DNA of 64,000 nucleotides from an uncultured delta proteobacterium. Its GTDB lineage: Bacteria; Myxococcota; Myxococcia; SLRQ01. The translations under genes were made by a program, and so were the position numbers. The stretch covers positions 576,001 through 640,000 of the forward strand of contig CAVSGM010000003.1 of NCBI GenBank assembly GCA_963727485.1. Direction: 5' to 3'. This document shows, piece after piece, positions 10,501 through 62,081 of the stretch. The notes beneath the pieces were generated by a model. The model was given only the letters and a program-made list of their open reading frames with translations, did no database searches and was not told the origin of the DNA. Positions within the stretch are counted from its first letter, which is position 1; each line of letters opens with the position of its first letter.

Positions 10501-13500
10501 GCTCCCCGTGGCGCCCGCTGGCGAGGCAGGCGCGCTCCAGGCGCGCCAGGACGTCCTCGTCGCCGGGGAGGCGGGCCAGGGCCGCCCGGAGATGGGCGAC
10601 CGCCCGGTCGGGGTCGCCGATGCGCCGCTCGGCGATGGTGGCCGCGGCGAGGCGCAGCACCCCCTCCCGGCGGCTGCCCCGGTGGAGGCGGATCTGCCGC
10701 TCGAGGATCTCGAGGGCCTTCGGCCAGTCGCCCAGGCGCCCGTGGAGATCGGCGAGGCGGCTCAAGAGCGCGTCCTTGGCCTCGGGCTCGGCGTCGAGGT
10801 CGACCATCGCGGTCTCGACCCGCGCCGCCTCCTCGGGGCGGCCGAGGCGCTGCTCCAGGATGTGGGCGAGCTCGTCGAGGAGGGCGAAGCGCCGCGACGG
10901 GTCGGGGGTGTGCACCGGGTCGGCGAGGTCCTCGAGGATCGCCGCCAGGGCCTCCCACGCCGCGGCGGCGGTGTAGGCGGCGCGGAGCTGGCCGAGGATC
11001 TCCCCGAGGATCCCGGCGCCGGGCTCGGCGGCGTCCCGGGCCCGCTCCAGGCACCGGCGCGCCCGCTCCCGGCCCCGGAGGTCCTCGGGTCCCGAGGCCT
11101 GGTGGTGGGCCAGGGCCGCCCGGAGCAGGGCCTCGGCCCGGGCGCTCCCCTCGAGGCGGGCGGCCCGGGCCTCGAGGAGGCCGGCGAGATCCGCGGCGCG
11201 GCCGGCGGCCTCGAGGTGCGAGGTGAGCTCGGCCCAGAGCCCGTCGTCCTCGGGGGCGAGGAGGCAGGCCTCCTCGAGGGCCTCGCCGGCCCGGGCGGCC
11301 GCGGCGTCGTCCCCGGCGCCGGCCAGCCGGCGCCCCACCTCGTGGATCTCCTGGAGGGCCGCGGCCCGCTCCCTGGGATCGGCGAGGCGCCGGGCCCGGC
11401 GCTCCATCAGGGGGAAGGCCTTGGCGTCCTCGCCGGCGTCCCGGTAGAGGTCGAGGAGGGCCGCCTGGGCCCCGGGGTGGTCGGGGACCAGCTGGAGGGC
11501 CTTCTCGTAGGCGGCCACCGCGCCCTCGGTGTCGCCCTGCTGGTGCCGGGCCACCTCCGCGAGGCGGACGTAGAGGTCGGCCTTCTCCGGACGGCCGGTG
11601 GAGGCGGCGATCCAGTGGCGCAGGGCCCGGGCCACCTGGGGCCAGTTGCGGCGCGCGGTGTGGAAGGCGCAGAGCTCGCGGATGGCCTCGGTGTCCGCGG
11701 GGTCGGCCTCCACGGCGGCGGCCCACTCGGCGCCGACCTCGTCGCCCCGGCCGAGGCTGGCGAGGGCGTCGATGAGCTCCCGGCGCCAGAGGGGCGCGTC
11801 GGTGTGGTGCCGCGGCTCGGCGGCGAGGCGCTCGCGGAGGATGCGCACCAGGGCCAGGGCGTCGTCCTTCTGGTGGTAGAGGGCCCGCAGCCGGGCGAAG
11901 GCCTCGGCGTCGCCCGGGGCCTCGGCGAGGACCTCCTCCCAGGCCATCCGCGCCCGGGCCGGGTGCCCGAGCTGGTCGCCGAGGAGGCGGGCCAGGCGCC
12001 GGTAGCCGTCGGCGCGGCCGGGGGCCCCGGGGCCGAGGGCGCCGAGGCTCTCCTGGAGGGCGGTGGCGGTCTCCCGGGCGTCGCCCTCCTCCTCGGTGGT
12101 GTCCGCCAGGCCCTGGAGGGCCTCGACGCATCCGGGCTCGAGCGCCAGGACCCGCTGCCAGTCCTGGCGCGCGGACCGGGGATCCTGGAGGCGGGTGGCG
12201 GCAATCTCGGCGCGCTTGAGGAGGGCGGCCTTCTTCTCGCCGAGGTCGGTGGCCCCGGTCACCGCCCGCTCCAGGGCCTCGACCAGGCCCTTCCAGTCCC
12301 GGCGCTTCTCCAGGAGCCGGCACAGCGCCGCCAGGGCCTCGGCGCTCCCGCCCCGGAGGATGACGATCTCCTCGTAGACCTTGGCGGCGCCGGCGAGGTC
12401 GGCGAGCTCGGTCTCCTTCAGCTCGGCGAGGCGGAAGAGAAGCTCGCACCGCGCCTCCACCTCGTCGAGGCGGCCGGCCCGGGCCCGGTAGAAGTCGGCG
12501 AGCTCGCGCCAGGCGCCCCGGGAGACGTAGAGGGCCTCGAGGCGTGACTCCAGGGCCGGGTCGTTCCCGGAGAGGGTCACCGCCCGGGCGAGGCGGCTGG
12601 CGGCGCGGCCGGCCTCGCCGAGGTCCTCGAGGTCGACCTCGGCGATGCGCACCAGGATCGCCGCCCCGGCGCCGGCGCCGAGGCGCAGGGCCAGGTCCTC
12701 GGCGACGGCGGCGAGCTGGGCGTGGGAGCGCGAGGCGCGGCCGGTGCGGAAGAGGACCTCGAGGAGGCCGTCGGTGGCGCCCCGGGCGGCCTCGGCCTCG
12801 GGCCCAACCTGGGGCAGGATCTGGATCGCCCGCACCGCCTCGATGAACGCCCGGCCCGGGTCCTCGAGGTGGGTCTCGTAGACCTCCGCGGCCTCGGCGT
12901 GGAGGCCGGCGGCGGCCAGGGCCCGGCCCTCCTTGAGGGCGGTGCGCGCCCCCTCGGCGAGGAGGTCGGCGAGGCGGGCGTAGGCGCCCTGGCGCCGGTA
13001 GAGGTCCCGGAGGGTCTCGAAGGCCTCCCGGGCGGTCTCGCCACCGCCGGGATCGCCGAGGCGCTCCAGCGACGCGATGGCCGCGGGGTTGCCCGGGGTG
13101 AGGTCGAGGAGCTCCCGGTAGTGGACCAGGGCCGCGGCCCGGTCGTCGAGGCGGTCCTCGCAGATCCGCGCCAGCTCCCGCTTGACCGCCGCCGCCCGGG
13201 CCACGTCGCGGGTGGTGCGCCACACCGCCTCGAGCTCCTGCTGCTTGAGCCGCGCCACCTCCCGCCACCGGTTCTCGCGGCCGTGGAGCTCCCCGAGGCG
13301 CCGGAGGGCCTCGAGGTTGTCGGGGTCGACGGTGACCACCCGCTGGTAGTGGTTCACCGCCGCCTGGGGTCGCGCCAGCTCCCGGCCGTAGAGGTGGCCG
13401 AGCTTGAGGTGGAGGTAGATGCGGTCGGCGGGGGGCAGGGCCCCGGCCAGCGCCGACTCGTAGACCTGGGCCAGCTCGGCGAAGGTGCCGGTGAGCACCG

Positions 13501-14188
13501 CGAGGCGGAAGAGCTCGTCGAGGAGCTCCCGGTCCGGCGAGGCGAGGCGGGCGGCGCGGACCAGGGCGAAGAAGGCGCGGTCCCGGTCGCCGGCGGCCTC
13601 CCGGGTGCGGCTCTCGGCCCGGAGGACGGCGCGCTCGTCGGCGTCGCTCTCGCAGTCGGCGGCGAGGGCCTCGAGGGCCTCGAGCACCACCTCCGGGGGC
13701 AGGCCCCGCCCCACGAGGGCCTCACACTGGCGGATCACCGGGGACGCCGGCGCCGCGCCCGGGGCCGCGCCCGCGCCCGGGCCCGCGCCCGGGGTCCCGG
13801 TGGCCCCGGCCGGCGCCGCCGGGGTTCCGCCCCTCGTCGTCCCGGGCGTCGCCGCGCCGGTCCCGGGATCGGTCACGGCGCCGTCGTCGAGGGGCGGCGC
13901 GGCCACGGGCATCGGCTCCCCGCGCCCGCGCCGGGCCCGGCGCCCGCCGGGGAGGACCGGGACCTTCACCGTGGCCTCGCGCCCGCCGTCGGGGTCGTCG
14001 GGGCGATCGCCCCGCACCCGCCGGAAGGCCTCCTCGGCCCGGAGCCCGGCGGGGATGGTGATCTCGCCGGTGGGGATGTCGTCGAGGAAGCGCGCCTCGC
14101 CGAGGGTCTTCACCCCCAGCTCGAGGTCGCCCTCGGGGTCGGTCCCCTTCTGGGGCTCGTCCCCCTTGCCCTCGGTCTTGCCACCCAC
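7526..14188 (-). CDS. giant (2220 aa) tetratricopeptide-repeat protein, myxobacterial AgmK-like
   Basis: Dozens of TPR-like helical repeats (e.g. AVNHYQRVVTVDPDNLEALRRLGELH); C-terminal RAGLLLAG...LRELVRF...LRRKLG tail. Confidence 0.8.
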   Translation of the reverse strand: MGGKTEGKGDEPQKGTDPEGDLELGVKTLGEARFLDDIPTGEITIPAGLRAEEAFRRVRGDRPDDPDGGREATVKVPVLPGGRRARRGRGEPMPVAAPPLDDGAVTDPGTGAATPGTTRGGTPAAPAGATGTPGAGPGAGAAPGAAPASPVIRQCEALVGRGLPPEVVLEALEALAADCESDADERAVLRAESRTREAAGDRDRAFFALVRAARLASPDRELLDELFRLAVLTGTFAELAQVYESALAGALPPADRIYLHLKLGHLYGRELARPQAAVNHYQRVVTVDPDNLEALRRLGELHGRENRWREVARLKQQELEAVWRTTRDVARAAAVKRELARICEDRLDDRAAALVHYRELLDLTPGNPAAIASLERLGDPGGGETAREAFETLRDLYRRQGAYARLADLLAEGARTALKEGRALAAAGLHAEAAEVYETHLEDPGRAFIEAVRAIQILPQVGPEAEAARGATDGLLEVLFRTGRASRSHAQLAAVAEDLALRLGAGAGAAILVRIAEVDLEDLGEAGRAASRLARAVTLSGNDPALESRLEALYVSRGAWRELADFYRARAGRLDEVEARCELLFRLAELKETELADLAGAAKVYEEIVILRGGSAEALAALCRLLEKRRDWKGLVEALERAVTGATDLGEKKAALLKRAEIAATRLQDPRSARQDWQRVLALEPGCVEALQGLADTTEEEGDARETATALQESLGALGPGAPGRADGYRRLARLLGDQLGHPARARMAWEEVLAEAPGDAEAFARLRALYHQKDDALALVRILRERLAAEPRHHTDAPLWRRELIDALASLGRGDEVGAEWAAAVEADPADTEAIRELCAFHTARRNWPQVARALRHWIAASTGRPEKADLYVRLAEVARHQQGDTEGAVAAYEKALQLVPDHPGAQAALLDLYRDAGEDAKAFPLMERRARRLADPRERAAALQEIHEVGRRLAGAGDDAAAARAGEALEEACLLAPEDDGLWAELTSHLEAAGRAADLAGLLEARAARLEGSARAEALLRAALAHHQASGPEDLRGRERARRCLERARDAAEPGAGILGEILGQLRAAYTAAAAWEALAAILEDLADPVHTPDPSRRFALLDELAHILEQRLGRPEEAARVETAMVDLDAEPEAKDALLSRLADLHGRLGDWPKALEILERQIRLHRGSRREGVLRLAAATIAERRIGDPDRAVAHLRAALARLPGDEDVLARLERACLASGRHGELAAILGDAARRVDDDDRRGTLLLRAAGIKETTLGDLAGARADLEAVMALPEVSPPVAEEAVAGLVRLLSAMAAYADLAKLYEGLAAATGDPEVQGDLRVILGLVQEEQLHDEAAALAAYRAALAVDPDNTAALDGVARLAEAADDLDTAIEMRRQEASLALGGEAQAGRLTQVGRLLEARGDDAEALAAYRAAAEADPGALPARRALLRLLRLTGDDAGIIEVARILAARARSGGERAALLTEVGERLEAADDETGAAEAFAAALDADPDHPTAGAALAAIHLARGDAEAASALLERAARGLSPDADRETLAGVLAQAATASEILGRQAAATGHLEEALRLGPTRPATLDALARLLEARGDAPRAYEVLRTFADHADDLEAVDRADLLRRTAACLSAMGRPGDAASLLEQAQVLAPGDRRVLSDLATVFSATGRWAEVVEVRERLRHQASDPETRRRLDLDIASVWAEHLHDAGRAAEVLERALAEHPDDPAVLDALAREQRKLGAFLEAAGSLRRRLAGEPDPALRGQLQLRLADLLRDHLDDPVTAAECYQGALELAGEGPAVEAALSGLRELAARTRDAAPLAAGLAWLAGRRETGPTEAALVRELAEVRRYQLGDLAGAMAALSRLLDLEPDDLKAAEDLARLAERTGRKDDADAAWRRVLTASPFDVDAYRALLRLRDAAGDRDAAAMVASLLVLVDEADGPTRRLAEALDAGPRPARALTPSARETLLDHPGTRGPAADLVAALGAEGASLFAPTGRAARLRTGGSFTTSAGPFAERVAEALLLAVRTLGIPAADLHLAPAGGEAVFAPVLAPKPVLTVAPEVVAGHRALDAAALRFHAARALMGMRPGWVAARVLSLAELKQLVDAAVIFGGAAETLGAEAEAAARPLAARLEKALPAERRPGVGDAARRFAEARRVGDLITFAEAVEHSAVRAGLLLAGTPQAAVEALRIEGEVARQALRELVRFAIDPAHGALRRKLGLTIA

Positions 14189-50655: not shown

Positions 50656-51753
50656 ATGAACGCGTCACCGCTCGAGGTGAACGCCGGGGGCAAGACGAGC
50701 CCCGAGGAGGCCCAGGCGCAGATGCGGCGTCTGGGCCTTCGGCGCATCGTGGTGCCCATCCCCTTCGAGGAGGAGGGGCCGGTCAACGTCTTCGTCCTGG
50801 AGAACGGGCCGGAGCTCGGCGGGGTCACCCTCTTCGACACCGGGGTGCTCACCCCCGAGGGCCAGGCGGCCCTGGACGGAGGGCTCACCGCGCTGGGGCT
50901 CGAGGCCCGGGACGTGCGCCGGGTGGTGGTCTCCCACGGCCACCTGGATCACCTGGGCAATGCCCACCGCTTCCCCGAGGCGACCCTCCACGTCCACCCC
51001 GGGGACCGGGCGAAGCTCGTCCCCGATCCGGCGGCGGTCGCCGGGCTCGATCGGCGGTGGCGGGGCCTCTACCGGGCGCTGGGGCTCTCGGACGGTGCCA
51101 TCGACGGGCTGGAGCGCCGGCGCCGGTGGCTTGAGACCATGCAGGTGGCGCCCCCGGCCGACCGGGTGCGGGACCTCGCCGACGGCGAGCGCCTCGCCTT
51201 CGCCCAGGTTGAGGCCGAGGTCCTCCACGTCCCCGGTCACACCCCGGGCCTCTGCGTGCTCTGGTTCGCCGACGCCGGGGTGATGCTCACCGCCGATCAC
51301 CTCCTTCAGCACACCTCGCCCAACCCGGTGATGGAGCCGGGCCCCGGGGGACCCGGCGCCCTCGGTGGCAAGGACCGGTCGCTGGTGCGCTACCTCGAGA
51401 GCCTCGCCCGGGTCCGGGCCCTGCCCATCCGGTGGGTGGCCCCGGGGCACGGGCCGCTCTTCGAGGGCGCCGACGCCCTCATCGACCGGCTGCTGGGCTT
51501 CTACGACCGGCGCCAGGATCGGCTGGTGGACTTCCTCCGGGCCCACCCCGGGGCGAGCACCCGGGAGGTCGCCGCCGAGGTCTTCGCCCGGGCCTACGAC
51601 AAGGCCCTGTTCCTGGTGCTCTCGGAGGTGCTGGGGAACCTCGAGGTCCTCGCCGGCCTGGGGCGCATCCGGGGGGCGCTGGACGACGCCGACGTGCTGA
51701 AGATGGTGGGCCGACGTCGGGGCGCCGGGATAGGGAAAGACCCGGAGCCTTGA
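50656..51753 (+). CDS. MBL-fold metallo-hydrolase
   Basis: [27 protein letters not shown]. Confidence 0.9.
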
Positions 51754-51804: not shown

Positions 51805-52104
51805 ATGCGCGACCTCCTGAAGCTCTATCCCCGCCACCACCCCGAGTCCGCCGGCCGTGTCCTCGACGGCGAGGCGGTGGTGGTGACCCCGGCGGACAGC
51901 CGGATGCACACCCTCAACGAGGTGGGCACCTTCCTCTGGGATTGGGCGGACGGGGCGCGGAGCGTGGCCGAGCTCGCCGAGGCGGTGGAGACCCGGTTCG
52001 AGGTCGACGCCCAGACGGCCCGGAGCGACACCGCGCAGTTCGTCGCCGACCTGGAGGCCCTGGGCATCCTGGTCCTCGACGAGGCGCCGGGGAGCCCGGG
52101 GTGA
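51805..52104 (+). CDS. PqqD family peptide-modification chaperone (stand-alone RiPP recognition element)
   Basis: GRVLDGEAVVV....MHTLNEVGTFLW..DG.RSV.E.......F.VD...A..D...F...L...GIL. Confidence 0.9.
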   Translation: MRDLLKLYPRHHPESAGRVLDGEAVVVTPADSRMHTLNEVGTFLWDWADGARSVAELAEAVETRFEVDAQTARSDTAQFVADLEALGILVLDEAPGSPG

Positions 52105-52246
52105 CGGGGCTCACGGTGGCCGAACGCCCGGGATGGTTGTCTGGTAGGCTGAACGCGGGGCCGGCGCCTGGGCTCGGAGGCGCACGGCTCGACCCGAGAC
52201 GGCGGACGGTTGGGGTGTCCAAGGCCGCTGGATGCACGGAGGGGCG

Positions 52247-55200
52247 ATGAGAAGCACCTGGAAGCACGCGGCTGCGGGCCTGGCCCTGGTGACGCTGGCC
52301 GTCACCGGTGGTTGCGACTGTGGCAAACAGACGAACACCTGCAGCCGGCCCACGGTGACCATCACCTCGCCGAAGGACGGGACCACCCTCTCGGCGGCCG
52401 ACGACAGCAACGCCAGCCTCGCCGGGGTGCAGGTGACCGTGAAGGCCACCACCGACACCTGCGTCCAGAACGACTCCACCGCCACCCTGGTGGTGAACGA
52501 CGACACCAACCTCGCCCGGTCGGCCTTCGTGACCGCCGGGAAGGTGAGCTTCCAGAACGTCACCCTGGTGCCCGCCGACGCCGCCGGCGACCTCACGATC
52601 ACCGTGAGCATCCGGGACAAGGGCACCGGGCTGGTGGCCAAGAGCACGGTGAACCTGGTGCTCCAGACCTCCGGGGGCCCGGTGTGCCGGTTCACGGCGC
52701 CCACCGACGGCCAGACCCTCGGCGCCTCCGACGACGCCGACGCCAACACCCCCGGCTTCCAGCACGACGTCACCGTCACCTGCGACACGGATCTCACCGG
52801 GACCCCGGCGAACCTCACCATCGACGGGGCGCCGGTGCCCTCGGCGATCTTCGCCGGGCAGACCGTGACCTTCCCCAAGGAGACCTTCTCCGAGGGGCAG
52901 AACGTCCTCTCGGCCTCGGTGGCCACCGGCGCCGGCACCTGGAACGGGAAGGCGAACGTCACCGTCGACACCCCCGCCTGCGAGATCCACCTCTCGCCCG
53001 CCGGGGCCAAGGTCTTCAACCTCGACGGCGACCCGCCCCGGCTCCCCGGGCGCCAGGCCATCGCCGACGCCGACGCCACCGCGCCGGGGATCCAGGCGGC
53101 GTTCACCGCCACCAGCCCCGACTGCCAGGGGAGCGACGCGGTGCTGGTGGTCGACGGCACCGACGCCAAGACGGTGAGCGTGACCGGGACGTCGGTGGAC
53201 TTCGGCACCGTGGATCTCCCGGATGGCACCGACGTCCCGGTGTGGATCGACGTGCGCCAGGCCACCGGGGGCACCGGGCCCACGGGTCGCTCGGTGACCC
53301 AGAGCTTCGTGGTCTCCTCGGCCCGGCCGTCGCCGGTGGTGACCTTCCCCGCCCAGAACGGGACCCTCGGGCCCGCCGCCGACACCGACGGCGATCCCTC
53401 CAACGGGATCCAGGCCGACCTCTTGGTCGAGGCGCCGAACCTCGCGGCGAACAGCAGCCAGACCGCAGGCGATGGCGCCCTCATCGAGGCGACCCTCACC
53501 GAGGTGTCCACGGGCACCCAGACCACCCTCACCTGCCTGGTGGGCGTGGACCACTGCGTCGACGCCACCGACCCCAACGTCTACCACCTGCCCCTGGACC
53601 TCGCGACCGACGGAGCCTGGAAGGTCACGGTGAAGGTGACGGGGCCCGCGGGGAACGTGGGCACCGCCGGCCCGGTGGACTTCGCCTCGAACGCCAACGC
53701 GGTGGGGGTCTCCATCGACTCGCCGGCGGCGGGGGCGAGCGTGAGCCTGGCCACCGCCGGGGTCACCGGGACCACGGTGCCGGTGCAGGTCTCCGCCCAG
53801 GGCGTGGCCGCGGGGGCGCCGGTGACGGTGCTGTGCACCGGGGCCACGGCGCCGGCCCAGGGCACCCTCGACGCCAGCGGCACCGCCACGGTCCCGGTGG
53901 ACTTCGGCAGCGCGCCCTGTGACGGGGTGCAGACCAGCTGCACCGCCACGGTGACCACCGGGGGCTCGGACCTCACCAGCGCCAAGGTCGACTTCCACGT
54001 GGACCTCACGGCGCCGACGCTGGCCATCGTGGCGCCGGCGGACGGGGCCACGGTCTTCGACTCCTCGGTCTCGGTGGAGGTGGTCAGCCAGTGCCTCGAG
54101 GACGGGCAGACCATCACCGTGACCAGCGACGGCGGCGCCACCGGGAGCGCCAAGGCGTCGGGGAACGCCGCGGTGGTGCCCCTGACCCTCCCCAGCGGCA
54201 CCCACGTGCTCACCGCCGCCGCCACCGACCAGGCGGGCAACCCGGCGACCAGCTCGCCTTCGAGCCTCACCGTCGACGCCAACCCCCCGAGCGTGGTCTT
54301 CGTGGCGCCCACCGACGCCCTGGTGCTCACCGGCGCCGACGACGCCGACACCTCGAAGGCCGGGTTCCAGCACGACGTGACCGTCCAGGTGGCCAACAAG
54401 CCCGCGGGCACCGAGGTGGTGCTCCTGGTGGGCTACGACGACGGGGGCCAGACCGTGTGGCGCGCGCCCCTGGGGCCGGTGGCCACCTCGGGGGCCAGCC
54501 TCAAGGCGACCTTCCCGGCGGTGGATCTCCCGGAGGGGGCGTTCCAGCTCGAGGCGGTGGCGACGGGTCCCTCGGGGCTCAAGGGCCAGAAGACCATCGG
54601 GCTCACGGTGAACACGGGGCTGCCCAGCTGCAACATCGTGGCGCCCACCGACGGCGCCTCCCTGGGGCTCCCCGCCGACGCCAACGCCAATCCCTCGGAC
54701 GGGATCCAGACCGACGTCCGGGTGCGGACCTCGGCGGCCGACGGCAAGACGGTCTCCCTGACCCTGGTCGACGGGACGGGGACCAGCCACACCCTCACCG
54801 GGACGGTGAGCGGCGGCGAGGCGGTGTTCTCCTCGGTGTCGTTCACCACGGCGACCGGGTCGCAGACCGGGCAGAACACCCTGGACGCGGTGTGTGACGC
54901 CGGGAGCGCCAGCCCCGGCCACGCCCTGACCAACCAGGTCGACGTGGACCTCGAGCCGCCGGCGGCGGCGCTGGTGACCCCGGTGGACGGCACGGTGTTC
55001 AACGCCGCCAGCCTCGACCAGAGCGCCGACCCCGGGTTCCAGGTGGACGTGGTGGCCAAGGCCACCAACCCCTCCAGTGGCCAGAGCGTGAAGGTGGGCG
55101 CCACCGGGACGTTGTCGGTGACCTGCGGGGGCCAGGCGCAGGCGCCGCAGACCACGACCTTCGACACCTGGCAGGGCCAGATCGAGGCGCGGTTCAAGGC

Positions 55201-58200
55201 GACCCTGGTGGACCAGCAGAGCTGCACCTTGAGCTTCGTGGCCACGGACCTCGCCGGCAACAAGAGCGCCCCGGCGACGGCGACGGTGGCGGTGGACCGG
55301 GTGCCGCCGACGGTGGCGATCTCGGCGCCGGCGGACGGGACCCTCTTCGGGGCGGTGGACGACGCCTCGGCGGGGACCGCCGGGTTCCAGCACGACGTGA
55401 CGGTGACCTACTCGGGGGTGGAGAGCGGTCAGCCGGTGCACCTGTTCTTCACCCGGCTCTCCGCCGGGGGCACTGCGGTGGAGGATCCCGGCAGCCCGCA
55501 CACGGTGGGGTCGGGGTCGCTGACCGGCTACACCTTCCCGGCGGTCACCTACACGCCGAACACCGATGACCAGGTGACGATCCAGGTGACGGTGACCGAC
55601 GCCGCCGGGAACCAGGCCTCGGCGTCGGTGGGGGTCACGGTGGACATGACGGCGCCGCAGGTGGCCATCACCCGGCCCACCAGCGGGGGCGCGTGCATCA
55701 ACGTGTTCAACGACTTCGACTTCTCCAAGCCGGGGATCCAGACCCAGGTGAACGTCGACACCTCGGGGGTGGCCAACGGGCTGCCGCTGACCTTGTGCAG
55801 CACCACGGGGACGGGGACGGCCTGCGGGACCAGCGGCTTCTTCCAGGTGGCCCAGAGCACGGTGAGCGGGAACACGGTGTTCTTCCAGTCCATCGACCTC
55901 ACCGAGGGCAGCCAGCAGCTCGAGGCCGAGAGCGCCGACCAGGCCGGCAACACCGCGGCCTCGGCGCCGGTGACGGTGTGCGCCGACTCCATTCCCCCGG
56001 TGGTCACGGCGCTGACGGTGCCCGCGGACACCAACGGGGACGGGTCGGTGAGCGCCGCCGAGCTCCAGGCGGCCGGCGGCCAGCTCTGCTTCGACGCCGC
56101 GGTGACCGGGGCCGACGGGCGGACCCTGACGATCTACACGAACAACCCGGCGGCCAAGACGGTGGTGGGCACGGGGACGGTGTCGGGTGGCGCGGTGCAG
56201 GTGTGCGGGAGCGTGCCCGAGGGCGGGCAGCAGATCACCGCCTATGTCACCGACGTCAACGGCAACCCCAACCTCAACGCCTCGAACCCGACCATCACCG
56301 ATCCGGCGGCGGTGATCCCGCTGGTGAAGGACACGGTGCCGCCGACCCTCACGGTGACGGCGCCCAGCGGCACGGTGCTCAACGGGACCACGGACGGGAA
56401 CACGGCGACGCCCGCGTGGGACGGGGCGTTCACGGTCGCGAGTGACGCCGAGGGCCAGACGGTCACCTTCACGGTGGACGGGGCCGCGGCGGGCACGGCG
56501 GTGGTCACGGGGGGCACGGCGAGCGTGAACGTGTCGCTCGGGAACAACACCAGCCACACCCTGGCGGCGGTGGTCACGGACGCGGCGGGGAACCAGAGCA
56601 CGGTGTCCCAGACGGTGCAGGTGGACACCACGCCGCCGACGGTGACGATCACCTCGCCGACGGGCGGGAGCTTCGTGAACACCAACTCGGTGGCGGTGAC
56701 GGTGAACGTGACCGGCTCCTCGGCGGGGAGCCCGCTGACGATCACGCGGACGGACACCTCGACCCAGCTCGCCAGCACCACGGTGGCGGCGACCCAGCCG
56801 CAGACGGTGACGGTGAACATCGCCGACGGGACGCCCACCCTGGTGGCCACGGCCCAGGACTCGGCGGGCAACGTCGGGACCTCGAGCCCGGTGAGCTTCA
56901 CGGTGAAGACCACCGGCTGCTCCATCGTGTTCGTGACGCCGTCGACGGCGACGGTCACCTGGAACGCCTCGGACGACGCCGACCCGGCGACGCCGGGCCT
57001 CCAGACGACCCTGGTCGCCGAGACCAGCAACTGCCAGGGCCGGACCATCACCCTCCTGAAGAACGGCACCCAGGTGGCGGCGACCGCCTCGGCCGCGGGC
57101 ACCGGCCAGGCCTCGTTCCCGGTGACCCTGAACGACGGCGAGACCGGGACCTTCACCGCCCAGATGACCGACCAGGCGAACAACGTCACCTCGTCGAGCT
57201 TCACCTTCACGGTGGACATCACCGCGCCGACCCTGGCGTGGACCGCGCCGACGGCCACCAAGCTCGCCTACGTGACGGCCACCAACCCCACGGTGGGCAC
57301 GGTGGTGAACGGGTACCTGCGCATCGCCGACACCGGCGCCGCGCCGGGGGCCCAGGCGTCGTTGTCCTTCGACGCGACGGGCGCGCAGGGTGGGACCCTG
57401 GTGATCACCCTGGGCGCCACCACGGTCTACTCGGCCTCGGTGACCGCCGACCCCCAGACCGTGACGCAGACGGTGACCCTGCCCCAGGACGCGGCGGGGA
57501 CCCTCACCGCGACGCTGACCGACGCCGCCGGGAACGCGGTCAGCGTGACCCGCGACGTCCTGGTGGACGTGGTGGCGCCGGCCGCCCCGACGGTGACGAC
57601 GTCACTGGTGAACGACCGGACGGCGACGGTGGGCGTGACCTGGACCGCGGTCGGCGACGACGGGGCCGCCACCGGCACCCCGGCGGGCTACGAGGTCCGC
57701 TGGGCTACGTCCCCGATCACCGACGACGCCACGTTCTCCACCGCGACCCTGGCGACCACCGCGGCGCCCACGGCCACGTCGTACTCCCTGACGCCGCTGC
57801 CGCCGCTGAACACCTACTCGGTGGCGGTGCGGGCCAAGGACGAGCTGGACAACATGTCCCCGGTGACCGTGGGGACCGACGTGGCCAGCCAGGCGAACAT
57901 GTGGACCGAGCAGCTGATCAATGGCGAAGGCGGGTACTTTGCCTTCGGCATGACAAGTCGAGGTGCAGACCTCAACCATGACGGCTACGACGACCTTGTC
58001 GTCGGTGCCTACAACTACACGGTCTCCAATCCGTCGTCTGGAACGGGGGCGGGCCGTGGCGCCGTCTACATCGTCTACGGGGGACCGGATCCGACCAATC
58101 TCACCGTGCAGAAGATCGTCGGCCAGACCGACGGTGAGAACTTCGGATACCGGATCGACACCGGCGACGTGAACGGCGACGGCATCCCCGATCTCATCGT

Positions 58201-59194
58201 TGGTGGCGCCGGCTACAACTCGGGCCAGGGTCGCGCCTTCATCTACTTCGGCGTGGACAGCACCAAGGGCGTGACCCAGATCAATTCCGCCAGTGCCATC
58301 GAGCTCCGCGGCACCAACGCCACCACCGGACAGTTCGGGCGGTCGTTCGCGGTCGTCGGTGACGTGAACGGCGATGGCATCCAGGACCTGGCGGTATCCG
58401 CCCGGCAGGAGGGGCCGAACAAGGAAGGCAAGGTCTACGTCTTCTACGGGCGCTCGGCGGCCACATGGCAGTCGGACGCCACGGCGAAGGGCTACCTGGA
58501 CACCAGCGATGCCAACCTGAGCTTCATCGGGACCACCACGGACGGCAACTTCGGCTACCGCTTCGGCCTCGCCGGCATTGGGGACATCGACGGTGACGGC
58601 AAGAGCGACCTGGTAATTCCGCAGTACTACACGGACCCGTCCAGCGTCGCGAGCAACAGCCTCTACGTGTTCCGCAGCTCGGACTTCCTGACCGCGGCCC
58701 AACCGGTGCCGGCGAGCGCGGCATTCCAGCATCTGGTGCCGACCGGATCGAGTCGCATCGGGTTCGATGGCCTGACCCTCTCACCGGACGGTACCTCCAA
58801 CTACCTCGTCGAGACGGACATCGCGGCAGCCACGGCGCGGCTCTACTCCATCGGGAGCAGTGGTCTGGCGACGCCTCCCGCCGAGTCCCTCGCCGCGCCG
58901 CCAGTCACGACCAACTACGGATACAGCGTCGCAGCCGGGGACTTGAACGGAGACGGCCGAACCGACCTCGTCCTGGGGAGCAATGGCTCGGCTACCAACA
59001 AGGTCTACCTTTATTTCAATCGCGGACAGAGCCCATTCTTCGGCAACGGTGCTCCTGATACAACTCTCCAGCGTACTGGCTTCTTCGGGACCAGCGTCTG
59101 GGTGGGTGACATCAACGGGGACGGCAAGCTGGACCTTGCAGCGGGCGCCGTGAACGACAATGGGGGCTTGGGCTACGTTCATATCTGGTACTAG
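52247..59194 (+). CDS. giant surface lipoprotein: tandem Ig-like repeats, FN3 domain, C-terminal FG-GAP beta-propeller
   Basis: Signal ending TGGCDCG; many TDxAGN / VDxxxP Ig repeats; WTAVGDDG..GYEVRW FN3; six clear DxNGDG..DL FG-GAP repeats; GGAGG RBS before the ATG at 52247. Confidence 0.88.
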   Translation: MRSTWKHAAAGLALVTLAVTGGCDCGKQTNTCSRPTVTITSPKDGTTLSAADDSNASLAGVQVTVKATTDTCVQNDSTATLVVNDDTNLARSAFVTAGKVSFQNVTLVPADAAGDLTITVSIRDKGTGLVAKSTVNLVLQTSGGPVCRFTAPTDGQTLGASDDADANTPGFQHDVTVTCDTDLTGTPANLTIDGAPVPSAIFAGQTVTFPKETFSEGQNVLSASVATGAGTWNGKANVTVDTPACEIHLSPAGAKVFNLDGDPPRLPGRQAIADADATAPGIQAAFTATSPDCQGSDAVLVVDGTDAKTVSVTGTSVDFGTVDLPDGTDVPVWIDVRQATGGTGPTGRSVTQSFVVSSARPSPVVTFPAQNGTLGPAADTDGDPSNGIQADLLVEAPNLAANSSQTAGDGALIEATLTEVSTGTQTTLTCLVGVDHCVDATDPNVYHLPLDLATDGAWKVTVKVTGPAGNVGTAGPVDFASNANAVGVSIDSPAAGASVSLATAGVTGTTVPVQVSAQGVAAGAPVTVLCTGATAPAQGTLDASGTATVPVDFGSAPCDGVQTSCTATVTTGGSDLTSAKVDFHVDLTAPTLAIVAPADGATVFDSSVSVEVVSQCLEDGQTITVTSDGGATGSAKASGNAAVVPLTLPSGTHVLTAAATDQAGNPATSSPSSLTVDANPPSVVFVAPTDALVLTGADDADTSKAGFQHDVTVQVANKPAGTEVVLLVGYDDGGQTVWRAPLGPVATSGASLKATFPAVDLPEGAFQLEAVATGPSGLKGQKTIGLTVNTGLPSCNIVAPTDGASLGLPADANANPSDGIQTDVRVRTSAADGKTVSLTLVDGTGTSHTLTGTVSGGEAVFSSVSFTTATGSQTGQNTLDAVCDAGSASPGHALTNQVDVDLEPPAAALVTPVDGTVFNAASLDQSADPGFQVDVVAKATNPSSGQSVKVGATGTLSVTCGGQAQAPQTTTFDTWQGQIEARFKATLVDQQSCTLSFVATDLAGNKSAPATATVAVDRVPPTVAISAPADGTLFGAVDDASAGTAGFQHDVTVTYSGVESGQPVHLFFTRLSAGGTAVEDPGSPHTVGSGSLTGYTFPAVTYTPNTDDQVTIQVTVTDAAGNQASASVGVTVDMTAPQVAITRPTSGGACINVFNDFDFSKPGIQTQVNVDTSGVANGLPLTLCSTTGTGTACGTSGFFQVAQSTVSGNTVFFQSIDLTEGSQQLEAESADQAGNTAASAPVTVCADSIPPVVTALTVPADTNGDGSVSAAELQAAGGQLCFDAAVTGADGRTLTIYTNNPAAKTVVGTGTVSGGAVQVCGSVPEGGQQITAYVTDVNGNPNLNASNPTITDPAAVIPLVKDTVPPTLTVTAPSGTVLNGTTDGNTATPAWDGAFTVASDAEGQTVTFTVDGAAAGTAVVTGGTASVNVSLGNNTSHTLAAVVTDAAGNQSTVSQTVQVDTTPPTVTITSPTGGSFVNTNSVAVTVNVTGSSAGSPLTITRTDTSTQLASTTVAATQPQTVTVNIADGTPTLVATAQDSAGNVGTSSPVSFTVKTTGCSIVFVTPSTATVTWNASDDADPATPGLQTTLVAETSNCQGRTITLLKNGTQVAATASAAGTGQASFPVTLNDGETGTFTAQMTDQANNVTSSSFTFTVDITAPTLAWTAPTATKLAYVTATNPTVGTVVNGYLRIADTGAAPGAQASLSFDATGAQGGTLVITLGATTVYSASVTADPQTVTQTVTLPQDAAGTLTATLTDAAGNAVSVTRDVLVDVVAPAAPTVTTSLVNDRTATVGVTWTAVGDDGAATGTPAGYEVRWATSPITDDATFSTATLATTAAPTATSYSLTPLPPLNTYSVAVRAKDELDNMSPVTVGTDVASQANMWTEQLINGEGGYFAFGMTSRGADLNHDGYDDLVVGAYNYTVSNPSSGTGAGRGAVYIVYGGPDPTNLTVQKIVGQTDGENFGYRIDTGDVNGDGIPDLIVGGAGYNSGQGRAFIYFGVDSTKGVTQINSASAIELRGTNATTGQFGRSFAVVGDVNGDGIQDLAVSARQEGPNKEGKVYVFYGRSAATWQSDATAKGYLDTSDANLSFIGTTTDGNFGYRFGLAGIGDIDGDGKSDLVIPQYYTDPSSVASNSLYVFRSSDFLTAAQPVPASAAFQHLVPTGSSRIGFDGLTLSPDGTSNYLVETDIAAATARLYSIGSSGLATPPAESLAAPPVTTNYGYSVAAGDLNGDGRTDLVLGSNGSATNKVYLYFNRGQSPFFGNGAPDTTLQRTGFFGTSVWVGDINGDGKLDLAAGAVNDNGGLGYVHIWY

Positions 59195-59202
59195 GTGAGA
59201 AC

Positions 59203-59364
59203 ATGGAAGAGTCGCGCAACAAGGAGCAGCGTCGGCGGTACGCGCCTCCGGCGGTCTCCACCGAGAGCCTGCCGCTGCTGCCGCTCGTGGAGTTGACCTC
59301 GGGCGGCACGGGCATCGGTGGCAACAGTCTGCCGAAGAAGCCAGGGCAACCACCCCCGCAGTAA
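59203..59364 (+). CDS. 53-aa putative RiPP precursor with lasso-type leader (not in ORF track)
   Basis: MEESRNKEQRRRYAPPAVSTESLPLLPLVELTSGGTGIGGNSLPKKPGQPPPQ*; AGGTGA SD overlapping the upstream stop; YxxPxV and T-x|G motifs. Confidence 0.7.
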   Translation: MEESRNKEQRRRYAPPAVSTESLPLLPLVELTSGGTGIGGNSLPKKPGQPPPQ

Positions 59365-59413
59365 CGCTGGGTGACGTCCGCGAGGCTCGCTACGTGTCTC
59401 CCGATCTTGAGCC

Positions 59414-60070
59414 ATGGACTGCCGCCGGTCCCTGGGGGCTCGTGCGGGTCGAGCGCGGTCGCCCAGACGTGGTGGACTGCGGATCGCAGTAGGCACCGCC
59501 AGACCAGTTGGAGTGGAGGTTTCTGGCGAACGGTACTTGGTGGCGCCCTGTCCCGATGGGGTCATGGGGCTGGTCCAACGCGCCATCCTGGCCGCGCATG
59601 TTGAATCGAGCGGGGGCTTTGTACTTCACGCCTCGGCGGTCGTCTCCGAGGGCGTTGACGCAACCCTCTTTCTGGGGCGGAGCGGGTCGGGCAAGACCAC
59701 GGTCTCCACCCAGGCGAAGGGCGCCCTTCTTGGGGACGACACCGTCGTCATCTGGCGCGGCGAGAGGGGCCTGGAAGTGGTTTCCACACCCTTTGTGAGC
59801 GATGGCGGGCGCTTGGCGGAGACACGCAGCGGGACGCCGCGCGCCGTGTGTACGCTTCGGTGGGGCACTTCGCCTCGGCTAGATCGCCTTGACGACCGCG
59901 TCGCGTTGCGGGCGCTGGTGGAGAGCATCTATCGTCCACTCGGTCCGACCCTCAACCTGGCGGTCGCCAAGAGCCTCTTGGATCTCGTCGGCATGACCAG
60001 GGCGTACCGGCTCACCTTCCCTCGCGAGTACCGCTTCGATCCATCGATTTTCGAGACCGAGGCAGGGTGA
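59414..60070 (+). CDS. HPr kinase-like P-loop protein (N-terminus uncertain)
   Basis: GGFVLHASAV, FLGRSGSGKTT, LLGDD, STPF. Confidence 0.8.
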   Translation: MDCRRSLGARAGRARSPRRGGLRIAVGTARPVGVEVSGERYLVAPCPDGVMGLVQRAILAAHVESSGGFVLHASAVVSEGVDATLFLGRSGSGKTTVSTQAKGALLGDDTVVIWRGERGLEVVSTPFVSDGGRLAETRSGTPRAVCTLRWGTSPRLDRLDDRVALRALVESIYRPLGPTLNLAVAKSLLDLVGMTRAYRLTFPREYRFDPSIFETEAG

Positions 60071-60081
60071 ACGTCGCTCCT

Positions 60082-61176
60082 CTAGAGAAGCAAGGGGAAC
60101 GGGATGGGTGCGCTGAGGGCTGACTCACCTGCGGTCTCGCGCGCCCAGCCCAGGGCGTCGTCAATCTCCCCGCCATGCCGCGACCGAAGCTCGGCCAGCT
60201 CCGTGGCCCTCTCCGTGCGTCCGTAGGTCCGTCCGGACTTGGCATGTCTCCCGAGCAGAGGGGCCAATCGCGTCTCCGCATCCGGGATCGCCTCCAGGCC
60301 GAAGAAGCTGGCCGCGGCGTCGACCGCGGCCCCGACGTCCTGTACCAACCGCTCGGTGGACAGCGTCCGTAGCCGGTCCGCTCCGAGCTTCGCCGAGGCA
60401 TCCCGAATCGCAGACATGTGACTGGTCCAGAGCGCGACCGCGATGCGGCCTGGAGGCATCTGGGGATGGGGCATCTCGGCGCCAGGGACCAGCGGCAAGA
60501 ACCCGCGCTCGAACCACGTGGCCCGTTGTCGGAGCCACTCACGGCGCTCCTCCGACTTGATGGCGGACGCGATGAAGGTGGCGGGGGAGGTGAAGAGGAA
60601 GATGCCCCGGCTCTCGGGCCGGGCACGGAAGAGCTGTTCCAGCCCGAGCGTCGCCGAATCGGACGCCTTGACGATGGTCGCTACCTGGCCGGTTCGGTGG
60701 CGCGCCAGGAGATGGAGAACCAGCCGCAGGGCCTCGATGGCCTCTTGGCGGCGGGTCGGCTCGCTCGCCGTCTTGGCGAGGGCCTTCACGGCGCCGTGGA
60801 GCCCCTCCGGTTCTCGGCGAGCCAGCGAGCGCGTTGTTGCCGCGAGGGCTCGAGACATCAGCGTGGACCCGCAAAACGCGTGGTGAAGGATGAAGTGCAG
60901 GGGGTCCGAAGGGGGCCTCGCCTGTGCGAATCGTCTGAGGAGGTAGGGGAGCGGTAGAAGGATCGCGTCTGGCGTCGCCTCTCGAATGGCCACCACGCCA
61001 TGGAAGGCCAGGGCGGCATGACGCGCCCAGTCTGCCGGCACGAAACCCATCGTGCCCTCCTCGAGGTCGACCGTGACCGGCTCGAGATCGGGCGACTCGA
61101 AGAGGTGAGCGAGCTGGGCGACCAACCGCTGCGCAGCTTCGGGGTCGTTGATCGCTGGACGGCCAGGCTTCTCCAC
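60082..61176 (-). CDS. sulfotransferase-like P-loop protein
   Basis: FILHHAFCGSTLMSRAL (PAPS 5'-binding-loop-like), REP, IVKAS, IFLFTSP..FIAS, RHAK; GTG start at 61176 assumed. Confidence 0.65.
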   Translation of the reverse strand: MEKPGRPAINDPEAAQRLVAQLAHLFESPDLEPVTVDLEEGTMGFVPADWARHAALAFHGVVAIREATPDAILLPLPYLLRRFAQARPPSDPLHFILHHAFCGSTLMSRALAATTRSLARREPEGLHGAVKALAKTASEPTRRQEAIEALRLVLHLLARHRTGQVATIVKASDSATLGLEQLFRARPESRGIFLFTSPATFIASAIKSEERREWLRQRATWFERGFLPLVPGAEMPHPQMPPGRIAVALWTSHMSAIRDASAKLGADRLRTLSTERLVQDVGAAVDAAASFFGLEAIPDAETRLAPLLGRHAKSGRTYGRTERATELAELRSRHGGEIDDALGWARETAGESALSAPIPFPLLL

Positions 61177-61252
61177 GGCGCAAGTGTAGGCGAGCACCCT
61201 CGGCGCCACCAATCGCTGGCTTGGCGTGCTAGCCTCGGGGCCAGGCAACTCC

Positions 61253-62081
61253 ATGGAGTCACACCTGGAAGGACTGTCGGTTGGCCGCTCCCTTTGGCCA
61301 GTCGCTGCGGGCGGTTCCCGGCTGCGGGCGGTCGGGCAATCCCCCAAGGTGGGCGAGGTGGTGGTCTATCGGCTGGGGCAGGGGCTGCGAGCACACCGGG
61401 TGCTGGCGGTGTCACAGGGGAGCCTCCTGGTCCGTGGTGACAACCCCATGGTGCCGCTTGAGCGCGTCTCGGCGGACCAGGTCGTCGGGGTCTGGCAGCC
61501 AGAGGGTCTCCGATCCCGCTTGACCCTCGGGGCCGTCACCGGCGGCGCCATCGGCACCCTGGCGCTGGCGGCCAGCCGCGTGGCGCGTGTCCGCGGCGCG
61601 CGGGCAATGGCGAACCTGGTGCCGAGGGCGGCCCCCGGCGGGCTCCACGTGGTGGTCGCCACCGAGGACCCCAGCCAGCTGGCCGTGAGCCTCGGTGAGG
61701 TGGGGCTGCTGCGTCCGTTTCGAACGACTGTCGAGGTTCAGTTCGCGTTGCTGACCGGGACGGGCTTCGCGGTGCTGGCTCGGGCCGAGCAGGGCACGGT
61801 AGCGGCACTCCGCGCGCTGCCTCAGGCAGATGCGCTGCTCCTGGGTATCACCGTGAAGCGCCGCTACCGCGGCCAGGGGCTCGGACGCCGGCTCCTCGAC
61901 GCCGCGCTCGCCGAGGCCCGCCGCCGCGAGAGCCCGCAGCCTCCTCGCCGACATCCGCCGCGACAACACCGCCAGCCTCCGCCTCTTCCAGGGCGCCGGG
62001 TTCACGCGCGTCGCCGAGGCCGTCCTGGTGGCCCCGGGCGACGGCGTGCTCTTCGACCGGTACGCTCTCGACCTCGGATGA
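61253..62081 (+). CDS. S24/S26 family peptidase fused to GNAT acetyltransferase; frameshift near 61934
   Basis: GRSLWP, GEVVVY, AHRV, RGDN; then V.RRYRGQGLGRRLL and, after a one-base shift, DNTASLRLFQGAGF...ALDLG*. Confidence 0.75.

Follow-up and report, generated by a model that had tools for sequence, protein, structure and literature searches.

What does a bacterium produce from a stand-alone peptide-recognition protein, a kinase and a leader peptidase that are encoded around a predicted surface protein of 2315 residues? This question is raised by a locus of an uncultured member of the Myxococcota (assembly GCA_963727485.1, contig CAVSGM010000003.1), located at positions 51805-62081 of the 64,000-nucleotide stretch of DNA analyzed here, hereafter called the window. 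A first-pass annotation had proposed that it encodes a system for a ribosomally synthesized peptide with post-translational modifications (RiPP). Our results show that the locus is one copy of a cassette that is conserved across the phylum. Judged by its likeness to known systems, we regard this cassette as a variant, phylum-wide and so far unstudied, of the RiPP systems for Linear Polyphosphorylated Peptides (LPP; Popov et al., 2026; PMC13381572), one that includes a candidate surface receptor exchanged together with the peptide. The best overall explanation is a maturation cassette yielding an exported phospho-peptide that would bind the propeller of the giant protein, a reading to which we assign a probability of roughly 0.5.

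Conservation of the cassette in the phylum

The cassette opens with a 99-residue stand-alone RiPP recognition element (RRE) of the PqqD family (51805-52104, plus strand; PF05402, E = 3.6e-18), followed by the genes for a giant predicted lipoprotein of 2315 residues (52247-59194, plus strand, within an open reading frame at 52232-59194), a 53-residue precursor peptide (59203-59364, plus strand), an HPrK-like kinase (59367-60070, plus strand) and a fusion of an S26 (signal-peptidase-I/SEC11-like) peptidase with a GNAT domain (61253-62081, plus strand, starting at 61226 or 61253). A sulfotransferase-like gene (60082-61347) completes the set, and the flanks are formed by a metallo-hydrolase gene (50656-51753) and a MoxR gene. 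All six genes, previously read as a contiguous block, are present where the first-pass annotation had placed them. However, the sulfotransferase-like gene lies on the minus strand, the N-terminal part of the kinase is encoded in another frame before position 59476, and the S26-GNAT gene is not a single open frame, its GNAT tail being shifted into another frame after ~61929.

The giant protein starts at the ATG at 52247, which is preceded by a GGAGG site, and combines a signal peptide carrying a lipobox-like LAVTGGC sequence with a long immunoglobulin (Ig)-like stalk, a fibronectin type III (FN3) domain and a C-terminal FG-GAP propeller. Big_13 (seven stretches), fn3 and FG-GAP are all recognized above their Pfam cut-offs. 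A G-C-x-C-G start is common to its relatives, and the protein is predicted to be lipidated and exposed at the cell surface. Its last 450 residues (57842-59191, plus strand) form a putative integrin-alpha-like FG-GAP beta-propeller region with six DxDGDG-type motifs. A profile of this region, built from 60 homologues, matches integrin alpha-4, alpha-IIb and alpha-V (best E = 6.6e-40), and an Atlas search returned FG-GAP clusters only. The giant protein shares with integrin alpha subunits the presence of FG-GAP propeller repeats on an Ig-like stalk but has the reverse layout, with a predicted lipid anchor at the N-terminus and the propeller at the C-terminal end.

An alignment of the N-termini of giants identified matches in 146 of 401 genomes of the phylum. 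We selected 60 loci by the giant alone, according to score and spread and before their neighbours were seen; they comprise 20 close kin (family f2), 22 other members of the class and 18 members of other classes, with the kin not being independent of each other. Their neighbouring genes were identified with home-made hidden Markov models. An RRE gene precedes the giant in 59 of the 60 loci, either directly upstream on the same strand (56) or divergently oriented (3), and the remaining locus is cut off. The sequence following the giant's stop codon was searched for the pattern [YW]xxPx[VILAT] in 57 loci, after omission of two contig ends and one wrongly cut stretch. It contains a YxxP peptide in 55 cases, as compared to 53 of 682 ordinary genes of the window genome (G000). 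When combined with a basic run, the pattern is found in 54 real peptides versus 14 of the 682 background genes. Among the 51 loci with more than 4 kb of downstream sequence (nine were dropped), 48 contain the kinase, 43 the S26 peptidase, nine a radical S-adenosylmethionine (SAM) enzyme and none the sulfotransferase, and 28 of the 43 S26 peptidases carry a fused GNAT domain. The order of genes is fixed: RRE, giant, peptide, kinase, in some cases the radical SAM enzyme, and finally the S26 peptidase, with or without GNAT. The cassette is therefore real and conserved across the phylum, with a degree of co-occurrence far above chance. The first-pass annotation had made its proposal dependent on a conserved short YxxP open reading frame and on co-occurrence of the genes beyond this one genome, and both are found.

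Named carriers of the cassette include Archangium gephyra, A. minus, A. violaceum, A. lansingense, Vitiosangium sp. and Citreicoccus inhibens, whose precursors are annotated merely as hypothetical proteins. The slot after the kinase is variable within the family of the window genome, containing a radical SAM gene in G002 and G003, an empty gap in G001 and the sulfotransferase-like gene in G000. A cassette radical SAM gene split off to another place in G000 is unsupported, with long matches reaching 31% identity at best. Two further loci of the class (L053:2876-5731, L054:2759-5984) hold giant-free cassettes composed of an RRE, a radical SAM enzyme, a peptide, a kinase and an S26 peptidase, with Cys-rich, Ser-ended precursors. 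A separate region of G000 (C2:1516000-1575000) contains some 18 matches to radical SAM enzymes within 60 kb, together with a protein containing an HExxH motif and FAD-dependent-looking genes, an arrangement that presumably resembles His-Xaa-Ser systems. No paper on the cassette was found in a literature search that took in few subscription journals and no bioRxiv supplements.

A second type of cassette (type B) is located between hisS and miaA in many f2 genomes and consists of genes for an S26 peptidase, an RRE, a propeller protein, a peptide and a kinase. Its propeller protein, a secreted protein of 700-1200 residues, has a PQQ/BamB-type propeller that is unrelated to that of type A but occupies the same slot. 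It has matches in all 18 genomes analyzed for genus g13 and all 21 for genus g21, whereas the type-A giant is found in none of 21 g13 genomes. Peptides are present at 25 of 28 type-B loci, all with even numbers of Cys residues; 21 of the 25 have a Ser at Y+18 (counted from the leader tyrosine), which brings them nearer to the LPP leader, and 23 have an ALA-like triplet preceding the presumed cleavage site. In g13 and g21, the precursor is nearly invariant (YxxPAILWEQPFVALA followed by a CX7C loop; L033:9392-14792, L034:9859-15035, L263-L277), making this cassette a good genetic test bed. At L278 and L279, giant and peptide occur without the enzymes in a stretch of 8.6 kb, which we count in favour of the pairing proposed below.

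Precursor, enzymes and likeness to known systems

The precursor encoded in the window combines a basic run with a Y13-x-x-P-x-V leader motif (RRRYAPPAV), the sequence LPLVEL, Ser33 and a Gly/Pro-rich core that lacks Cys. Across the relatives, the leader follows the pattern YxxPx[VIL]x[ST]E...L, and the core (taken from Y+17) varies strongly in sequence and in length, from 4 to 37 residues. None of the peptides contains a strongly hydrophobic stretch, and their profile gave no match in the PDB. At loci free of radical SAM genes, 43 of 46 peptides have a Ser or Thr at Y+18 to Y+20, as opposed to 235 of the 905 three-residue windows taken from later positions, and only one of the 46 ends in such a residue; at radical SAM loci, the respective numbers are six and five of ten. 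The G002 peptide, which is 45% identical to that of the window, has kept LPLVEL-x-S, suggesting that Ser33 is the likely phospho-acceptor, with Thr32 being less likely. Of 66 distinct peptides, 13, including that of the window, have cores without Cys, 52 contain two, four or six Cys residues, and one has an odd number. The even count in 52 of the 53 Cys-bearing cores fits what disulfides formed outside the cytoplasm would need. Four loci from other classes (L102, L103, L109, L110) have a peptidase M1 gene after the cassette, and their cores terminate with the Arg-rich sequence YGPxRxxPRR.

The RRE family profile matches solved RRE structures from lasso and LPP pathways, namely the chains TbiB1 (5v1u), PbaB1 (9x90), TfuB1 (6jx3) and LppB (9x8z), the last with E = 1.4e-8; an initial scan of the genome contigs with the single RRE as a query had given no matches. 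The kinase shows HASAV, GRSGSGKTT and GDD motifs, has an uncertain start (CTG at 59367 or GTG at 59394), and its profile matches PEPCK and HPrK (1jb1; E = 1.5e-4). The S26-GNAT profile matches SEC11A (E = 2.8e-6) as well as GNATs, with PF00583 above its cut-off. Alignment assigns the S26 catalytic residues, at the level of motifs, to the Ser in GRSLWP, the His in AHRV and the Asp in RGDN, and the Ser and His motifs are conserved among the relatives.

These enzymes closely recall the LPP system, which is encoded by lppA/B/K/S/D/N in Paenibacillus alginolyticus and defined by an SpI peptidase, an RRE, an HprK kinase, a nucleoside triphosphate (NTP) transferase as well as an MsbA-like exporter (Popov et al., 2026; PMC13381572). 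In this system, core Ser3 has been shown to be polyphosphorylated and cleavage to depend on the RRE, and the phospho-Ser of LppA lies at Y+18 (PMC13381572). The claim of the first-pass annotation that no described RiPP class has a comparable architecture therefore does not stand, because LPP already combines an RRE, an SpI peptidase and an HprK kinase acting on a linear peptide. Conversely, the matching enzyme trio lends support by analogy to its suggestion that a linear precursor would be bound by an RRE, cleaved by an S26-type peptidase and phosphorylated by an HPrK-type kinase. Both systems have a discrete RRE, a YxxPxV leader, an HprK-like kinase, an SpI/S26 leader peptidase with Ser, His and Asp residues, and a Ser close to where the variable core begins, and both lack a macrolactam cyclase. 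The cassette differs in that it has neither an NTP transferase nor an MsbA-like exporter, occurs in Myxococcota rather than in Bacillota, and carries the gene for the giant Ig/FG-GAP lipoprotein between those of RRE and precursor; moreover, its S26 peptidase is often fused to GNAT, a radical SAM enzyme is optional, and the cores are often Cys-rich. The terms Myxo-, GNAT, FG-GAP, radical SAM and sulfotransferase do not appear in the main text of the LPP article, its discussion states the function of LPPs as unknown, and four SpI rows in its data file belong to Myxococcota, with 'not determined' entered for the precursor (PMC13381572).

The only match to the NTP transferase family PF14907 in the window genome is located at C3:182288, about 445 kb away, and none was found among the 86 proteins scanned (of 102 listed) from the neighbourhoods of the relatives. 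An MsbA-like exporter is absent both from the window locus, between its metallo-hydrolase and MoxR flanks, and from these 86 proteins. The published leader consensus YxxPxVLxHQxIxFETxxS (PMC13381572) is not matched either, as the window peptide has just YxxPxV and a Ser at Y+20, without HQxIxFET. Given these three differences, we do not file the cassette as a member of LPP itself.

Other systems are more distant. Paeninodin-type lasso peptide clusters (PadeK/ThcoK; PMC9266682) likewise pair a discrete RRE with an HPrK-like kinase that targets a Ser of the precursor. However, PadeK modifies a C-terminal Ser (PMC9266682), a position rarely occupied by Ser or Thr in our peptides from loci free of radical SAM genes, and the cassette has no B2 peptidase or cyclase. 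PF13471, the B2 peptidase family, had no match in the 93%-complete genome, and all matches to the cyclase family PF00733 fall outside the window; since radical SAM genes have no match inside it either, the first-pass annotation was right to report neither a lasso cyclase nor a radical SAM enzyme there. SynChlorMet, GeoRSP and HPr-rel-A systems (TIGR04248/04249, TIGR04302, TIGR04352/04353) likewise combine a PqqD-family protein with an HprK-related kinase, and the first two share their radical SAM enzyme with nine of the 51 relatives. The window copy lacks such an enzyme, and its RRE gives weak matches below each curated cut-off (30.6 of 100 bits for TIGR04248, 31.8 of 100 for TIGR04302 and 27 of 35 for TIGR04353). 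SynChlorMet is named in none of the papers searched. TIGR04352 (HprK-related kinase A) matches 14 of 16 members of the kinase family at E <= 0.01, but not the window copy. G000 contains a second RRE locus (C2:1830469-1835302), in which a stand-alone RRE, its N-terminus resembling a twin-arginine signal, accompanies a split-looking gene of the radical SAM/SPASM + RRE + kinase-like type; a precursor was not identified there.

Joint exchange of peptide and propeller

Within the giant gene of the window, the GC content at third codon positions (GC3) is 0.98 up to codon 1860, covering the stalk and the FN3 domain, and drops at around codon 1861, where the propeller starts, to values of 0.70-0.92. 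It is also low in the genes for the peptide (0.85), the kinase (0.77), the sulfotransferase-like protein (0.82) and S26-GNAT (0.84), whereas the GNAT tail (0.96) as well as the RRE and MoxR genes (0.97) lie outside the patch. The low-GC3 segment (57810-61930), comprising the propeller, the peptide, the kinase, the sulfotransferase-like gene and most of S26-GNAT, is likely an imported block. A similar drop is seen in the giant of G001 (propeller 0.66 versus 0.85), while it never exceeds 0.05 in the other eight relatives checked.

Three mosaics among 25 close f2 loci (L068, L076, L081) break at residues 150-300 of the giant: RRE and giant N-terminus are their own, whereas the rest of the giant is foreign and comes with the type of peptide that matches it; in L076, the kinase and the S26 peptidase have remained native. 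Consistent with such exchange, genus g42 forms a single clade in the RRE tree (SH-aLRT 90), but a single propeller clade is rejected (p-AU = 2e-39). A second group gave p = 4e-68 but was named after the RRE tree had been seen. The body of the giant or its propeller has thus been exchanged between lineages together with the peptide. This co-exchange and the fixed gene order bear out the tie between peptide and surface protein that had been suspected from the window alone. However, linkage by itself can yield joint transfer, so that the co-exchange supports but does not prove a matched pair. With the RRE fixed, the similarity of cores across 24 loci shows partial correlations of 0.62 with the kinase, 0.56 with the propeller, 0.52 with the stalk, 0.47 with the S26 peptidase and 0.16 with the giant's N-terminus, and the permutation p-values overstate these relationships because the kin are related. 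The correlation between core and propeller still amounts to 0.28-0.31 when kinase, S26 peptidase, RRE and stalk are all fixed, again among kin that are not independent.

Proposed mechanism and alternative readings

We propose that the RRE binds the YxxPxV leader of the precursor and presents it to the kinase and the S26 peptidase. The kinase would phosphorylate Ser33, and the peptidase would remove the leader by a cut around residues 29-32, leaving a short linear phospho-peptide. By analogy with LPP, we consider these initial steps very probable. Capping of the new N-terminus by the GNAT domain is conceivable but somewhat doubtful. The core would then leave the cytoplasm by a route unlinked to the cassette, which appears rather probable, and bind the integrin-like propeller that forms the giant's tip; export followed by binding stands at about even odds. 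We give the same weight to the idea that the propeller is the cognate partner, so that the cell surface would bear a variable pair of peptide and receptor. A phylum-wide lock-and-key arrangement, in which each lineage would make its own phosphorylated and often disulfide-looped peptide, display the corresponding propeller (integrin-like in type A, BamB-like in type B) on a long stalk and exchange the two as one unit, is a tentative extension that we hold to be on the unlikely side.

Several observations weigh against this proposal. None of the 86 neighbouring proteins scanned is an ABC exporter and, given the lack of strongly hydrophobic stretches in the peptides, export would have to proceed without a known route. 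The N-terminus of the S26 peptidase is shorter in the window copy than in most homologues, and the corresponding helix of LppS is predicted to contact the RRE (PMC13381572). The most conserved Ser/Thr of the precursors is found in the leader, at Y+7 (89%), and represents an alternative target of the kinase. The window core is devoid of Cys, and three relatives have cores of merely 4-5 residues (L106:8787-8882, L108:10912-11007, L112:8665-8757), with RRE, giant, kinase and S26 peptidase still present. L111 has a giant and an RRE, but peptide, kinase and S26 peptidase were not found. The type-B propeller occurs without a peptide or an RRE in all three loci examined from other classes, which counts against a strict need of the propeller for the peptide. 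Furthermore, the cores track the kinase as well as the propeller, neighbouring genes travel jointly whatever their function, and both frameshifts of the window copy may be genuine.

Some of these points would suit an LPP-like peptide with a job of its own, such as signalling, metal binding or a role in the matrix, next to a giant that is a co-transcribed but non-contacting adhesin and co-exchanged through linkage only. The link of cores to the kinase and the S26 peptidase, the peptide-free type-B propellers and the giant-free cassettes of L053 and L054 all speak for this possibility. It is nevertheless rather unlikely in our view, because 55 of 57 loci have giant and peptide side by side, including those in which the kinase lies elsewhere and no S26 peptidase is close (L082, L087, L091, L095, L097), because two unrelated propellers occupy the same slot, and because the core-propeller correlation persists with the other components fixed. 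Alternatively, the peptide could act as an intracellular or periplasmic switch or folding plug that controls the production, secretion or assembly of the giant rather than as a released ligand. The lack of an exporter in the cassette, the minimal length of some cores and the position of the giant gene between RRE and precursor in a single tight unit would be in line with such a role. However, the even Cys counts, up to six, fit folded extracellular mini-domains, and the reading frame of the peptide relative to the giant is random (23/20/17), which rules out read-through fusion of the two; we thus rate this option as decidedly unlikely.

The least probable of the alternatives, which we would give only a slim chance, is that the window copy is decaying, having lost its radical SAM enzyme, acquired genuine frameshifts and been interrupted by an unrelated, operon-breaking sulfotransferase gene. 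It could account for the two frameshifts, the antisense insertion and the radical SAM gene after the kinase in G002 and G003, for which G000 lacks a close orthologue. On the other hand, a radical SAM gene is also absent in 42 of the 51 relatives, and the catalytic motifs are intact. In addition, contigs from public sequencing runs show in-frame forms: one X1 contig has an extra base at 59476 (one mismatch in 477 positions, depth 3.3), and one X4 contig, 91% alike, lacks a base at 61929 (depth 3 of 6.1). The precursor gene is covered by an X1 contig with one mismatch. As each difference restores the reading frame found in homologues, both frameshifts are likely to be assembly errors, although each case depends on a single low-depth contig and the evidence is weak. 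Indel errors do occur in this assembly, since one base at 51699 is absent from contigs of two studies, and the 3' end of the metallo-hydrolase gene is probably mis-framed as a result. The junctions between giant and peptide, kinase and sulfotransferase-like gene, and sulfotransferase-like gene and S26-GNAT are spanned by public-run contigs, the last two by contigs of X1, indicating that the gene order is not a mis-assembly.

What is new in these findings is that a giant Ig/FG-GAP lipoprotein is a fixed part of the cassette and that its body or propeller is co-exchanged with the peptide. As an enzyme trio of the LPP type is located beside one obvious candidate partner throughout the phylum, the open question of LPP function becomes a direct binding test. 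If the lock-and-key arrangement were true, a bacterial integrin-like receptor would have a RiPP as its ligand, with a role in cell recognition, adhesion or signalling, and this would be the first function for LPP-type peptides. A genuine pair of peptide and receptor would add a peptide-receptor layer to myxobacterial social biology. The cores also represent a large and so far unused collection of short Cys-rich peptides, for which cultured carriers exist.

The sulfotransferase-like gene stands apart from this scheme. Its start is uncertain (61050 to 61347), its matches to sulfotransferase structures are weak, and PF13469 scores 18.4 bits against a cut-off of 27. It is a real gene nevertheless, as it has 49 homologues with an invariant H-x-A-x-C-G-S-T motif. 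Its closest relatives, from metagenomes and sphingomonads, are 34% identical, and none of 34 metagenomic loci of more than 7 kb shows an RRE, the kinase or the S26 peptidase near them. Their neighbours (22 loci; 66 of 152 listed proteins scanned) instead include TauD (10) and Asp/Asn hydroxylases (5). With the gene missing from all 51 cassettes of the relatives and from four of four family genomes, it is private to the window genome among the genomes examined and does not belong to the class, and we reject sulfation, which the first-pass annotation had listed among the modifications, as a class feature. Since the gene has the same low GC3 as the rest of the imported block and APS kinase genes occur in the genome, its use on the window peptide is possible, but we consider such a modification unlikely. 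The palindrome CTCCATGGAG at 61250-61259 provides an ATG on both strands, so that the S26-GNAT gene and a possible start of the sulfotransferase-like gene overlap head to head.

The window contains no tRNA gene, and the repeats between 57.5 and 62.2 kb are FG-GAP coding repeats or chance matches, with no mobile-element ends seen. Scans for sigma-70 promoters and terminators returned 0 and 2 sites, respectively, equal to the level in shuffled sequences. Outside the cassette, the minus strand of the window encodes a repeat-rich protein of 2220 residues (7526-14188) that appears TPR-like by eye.

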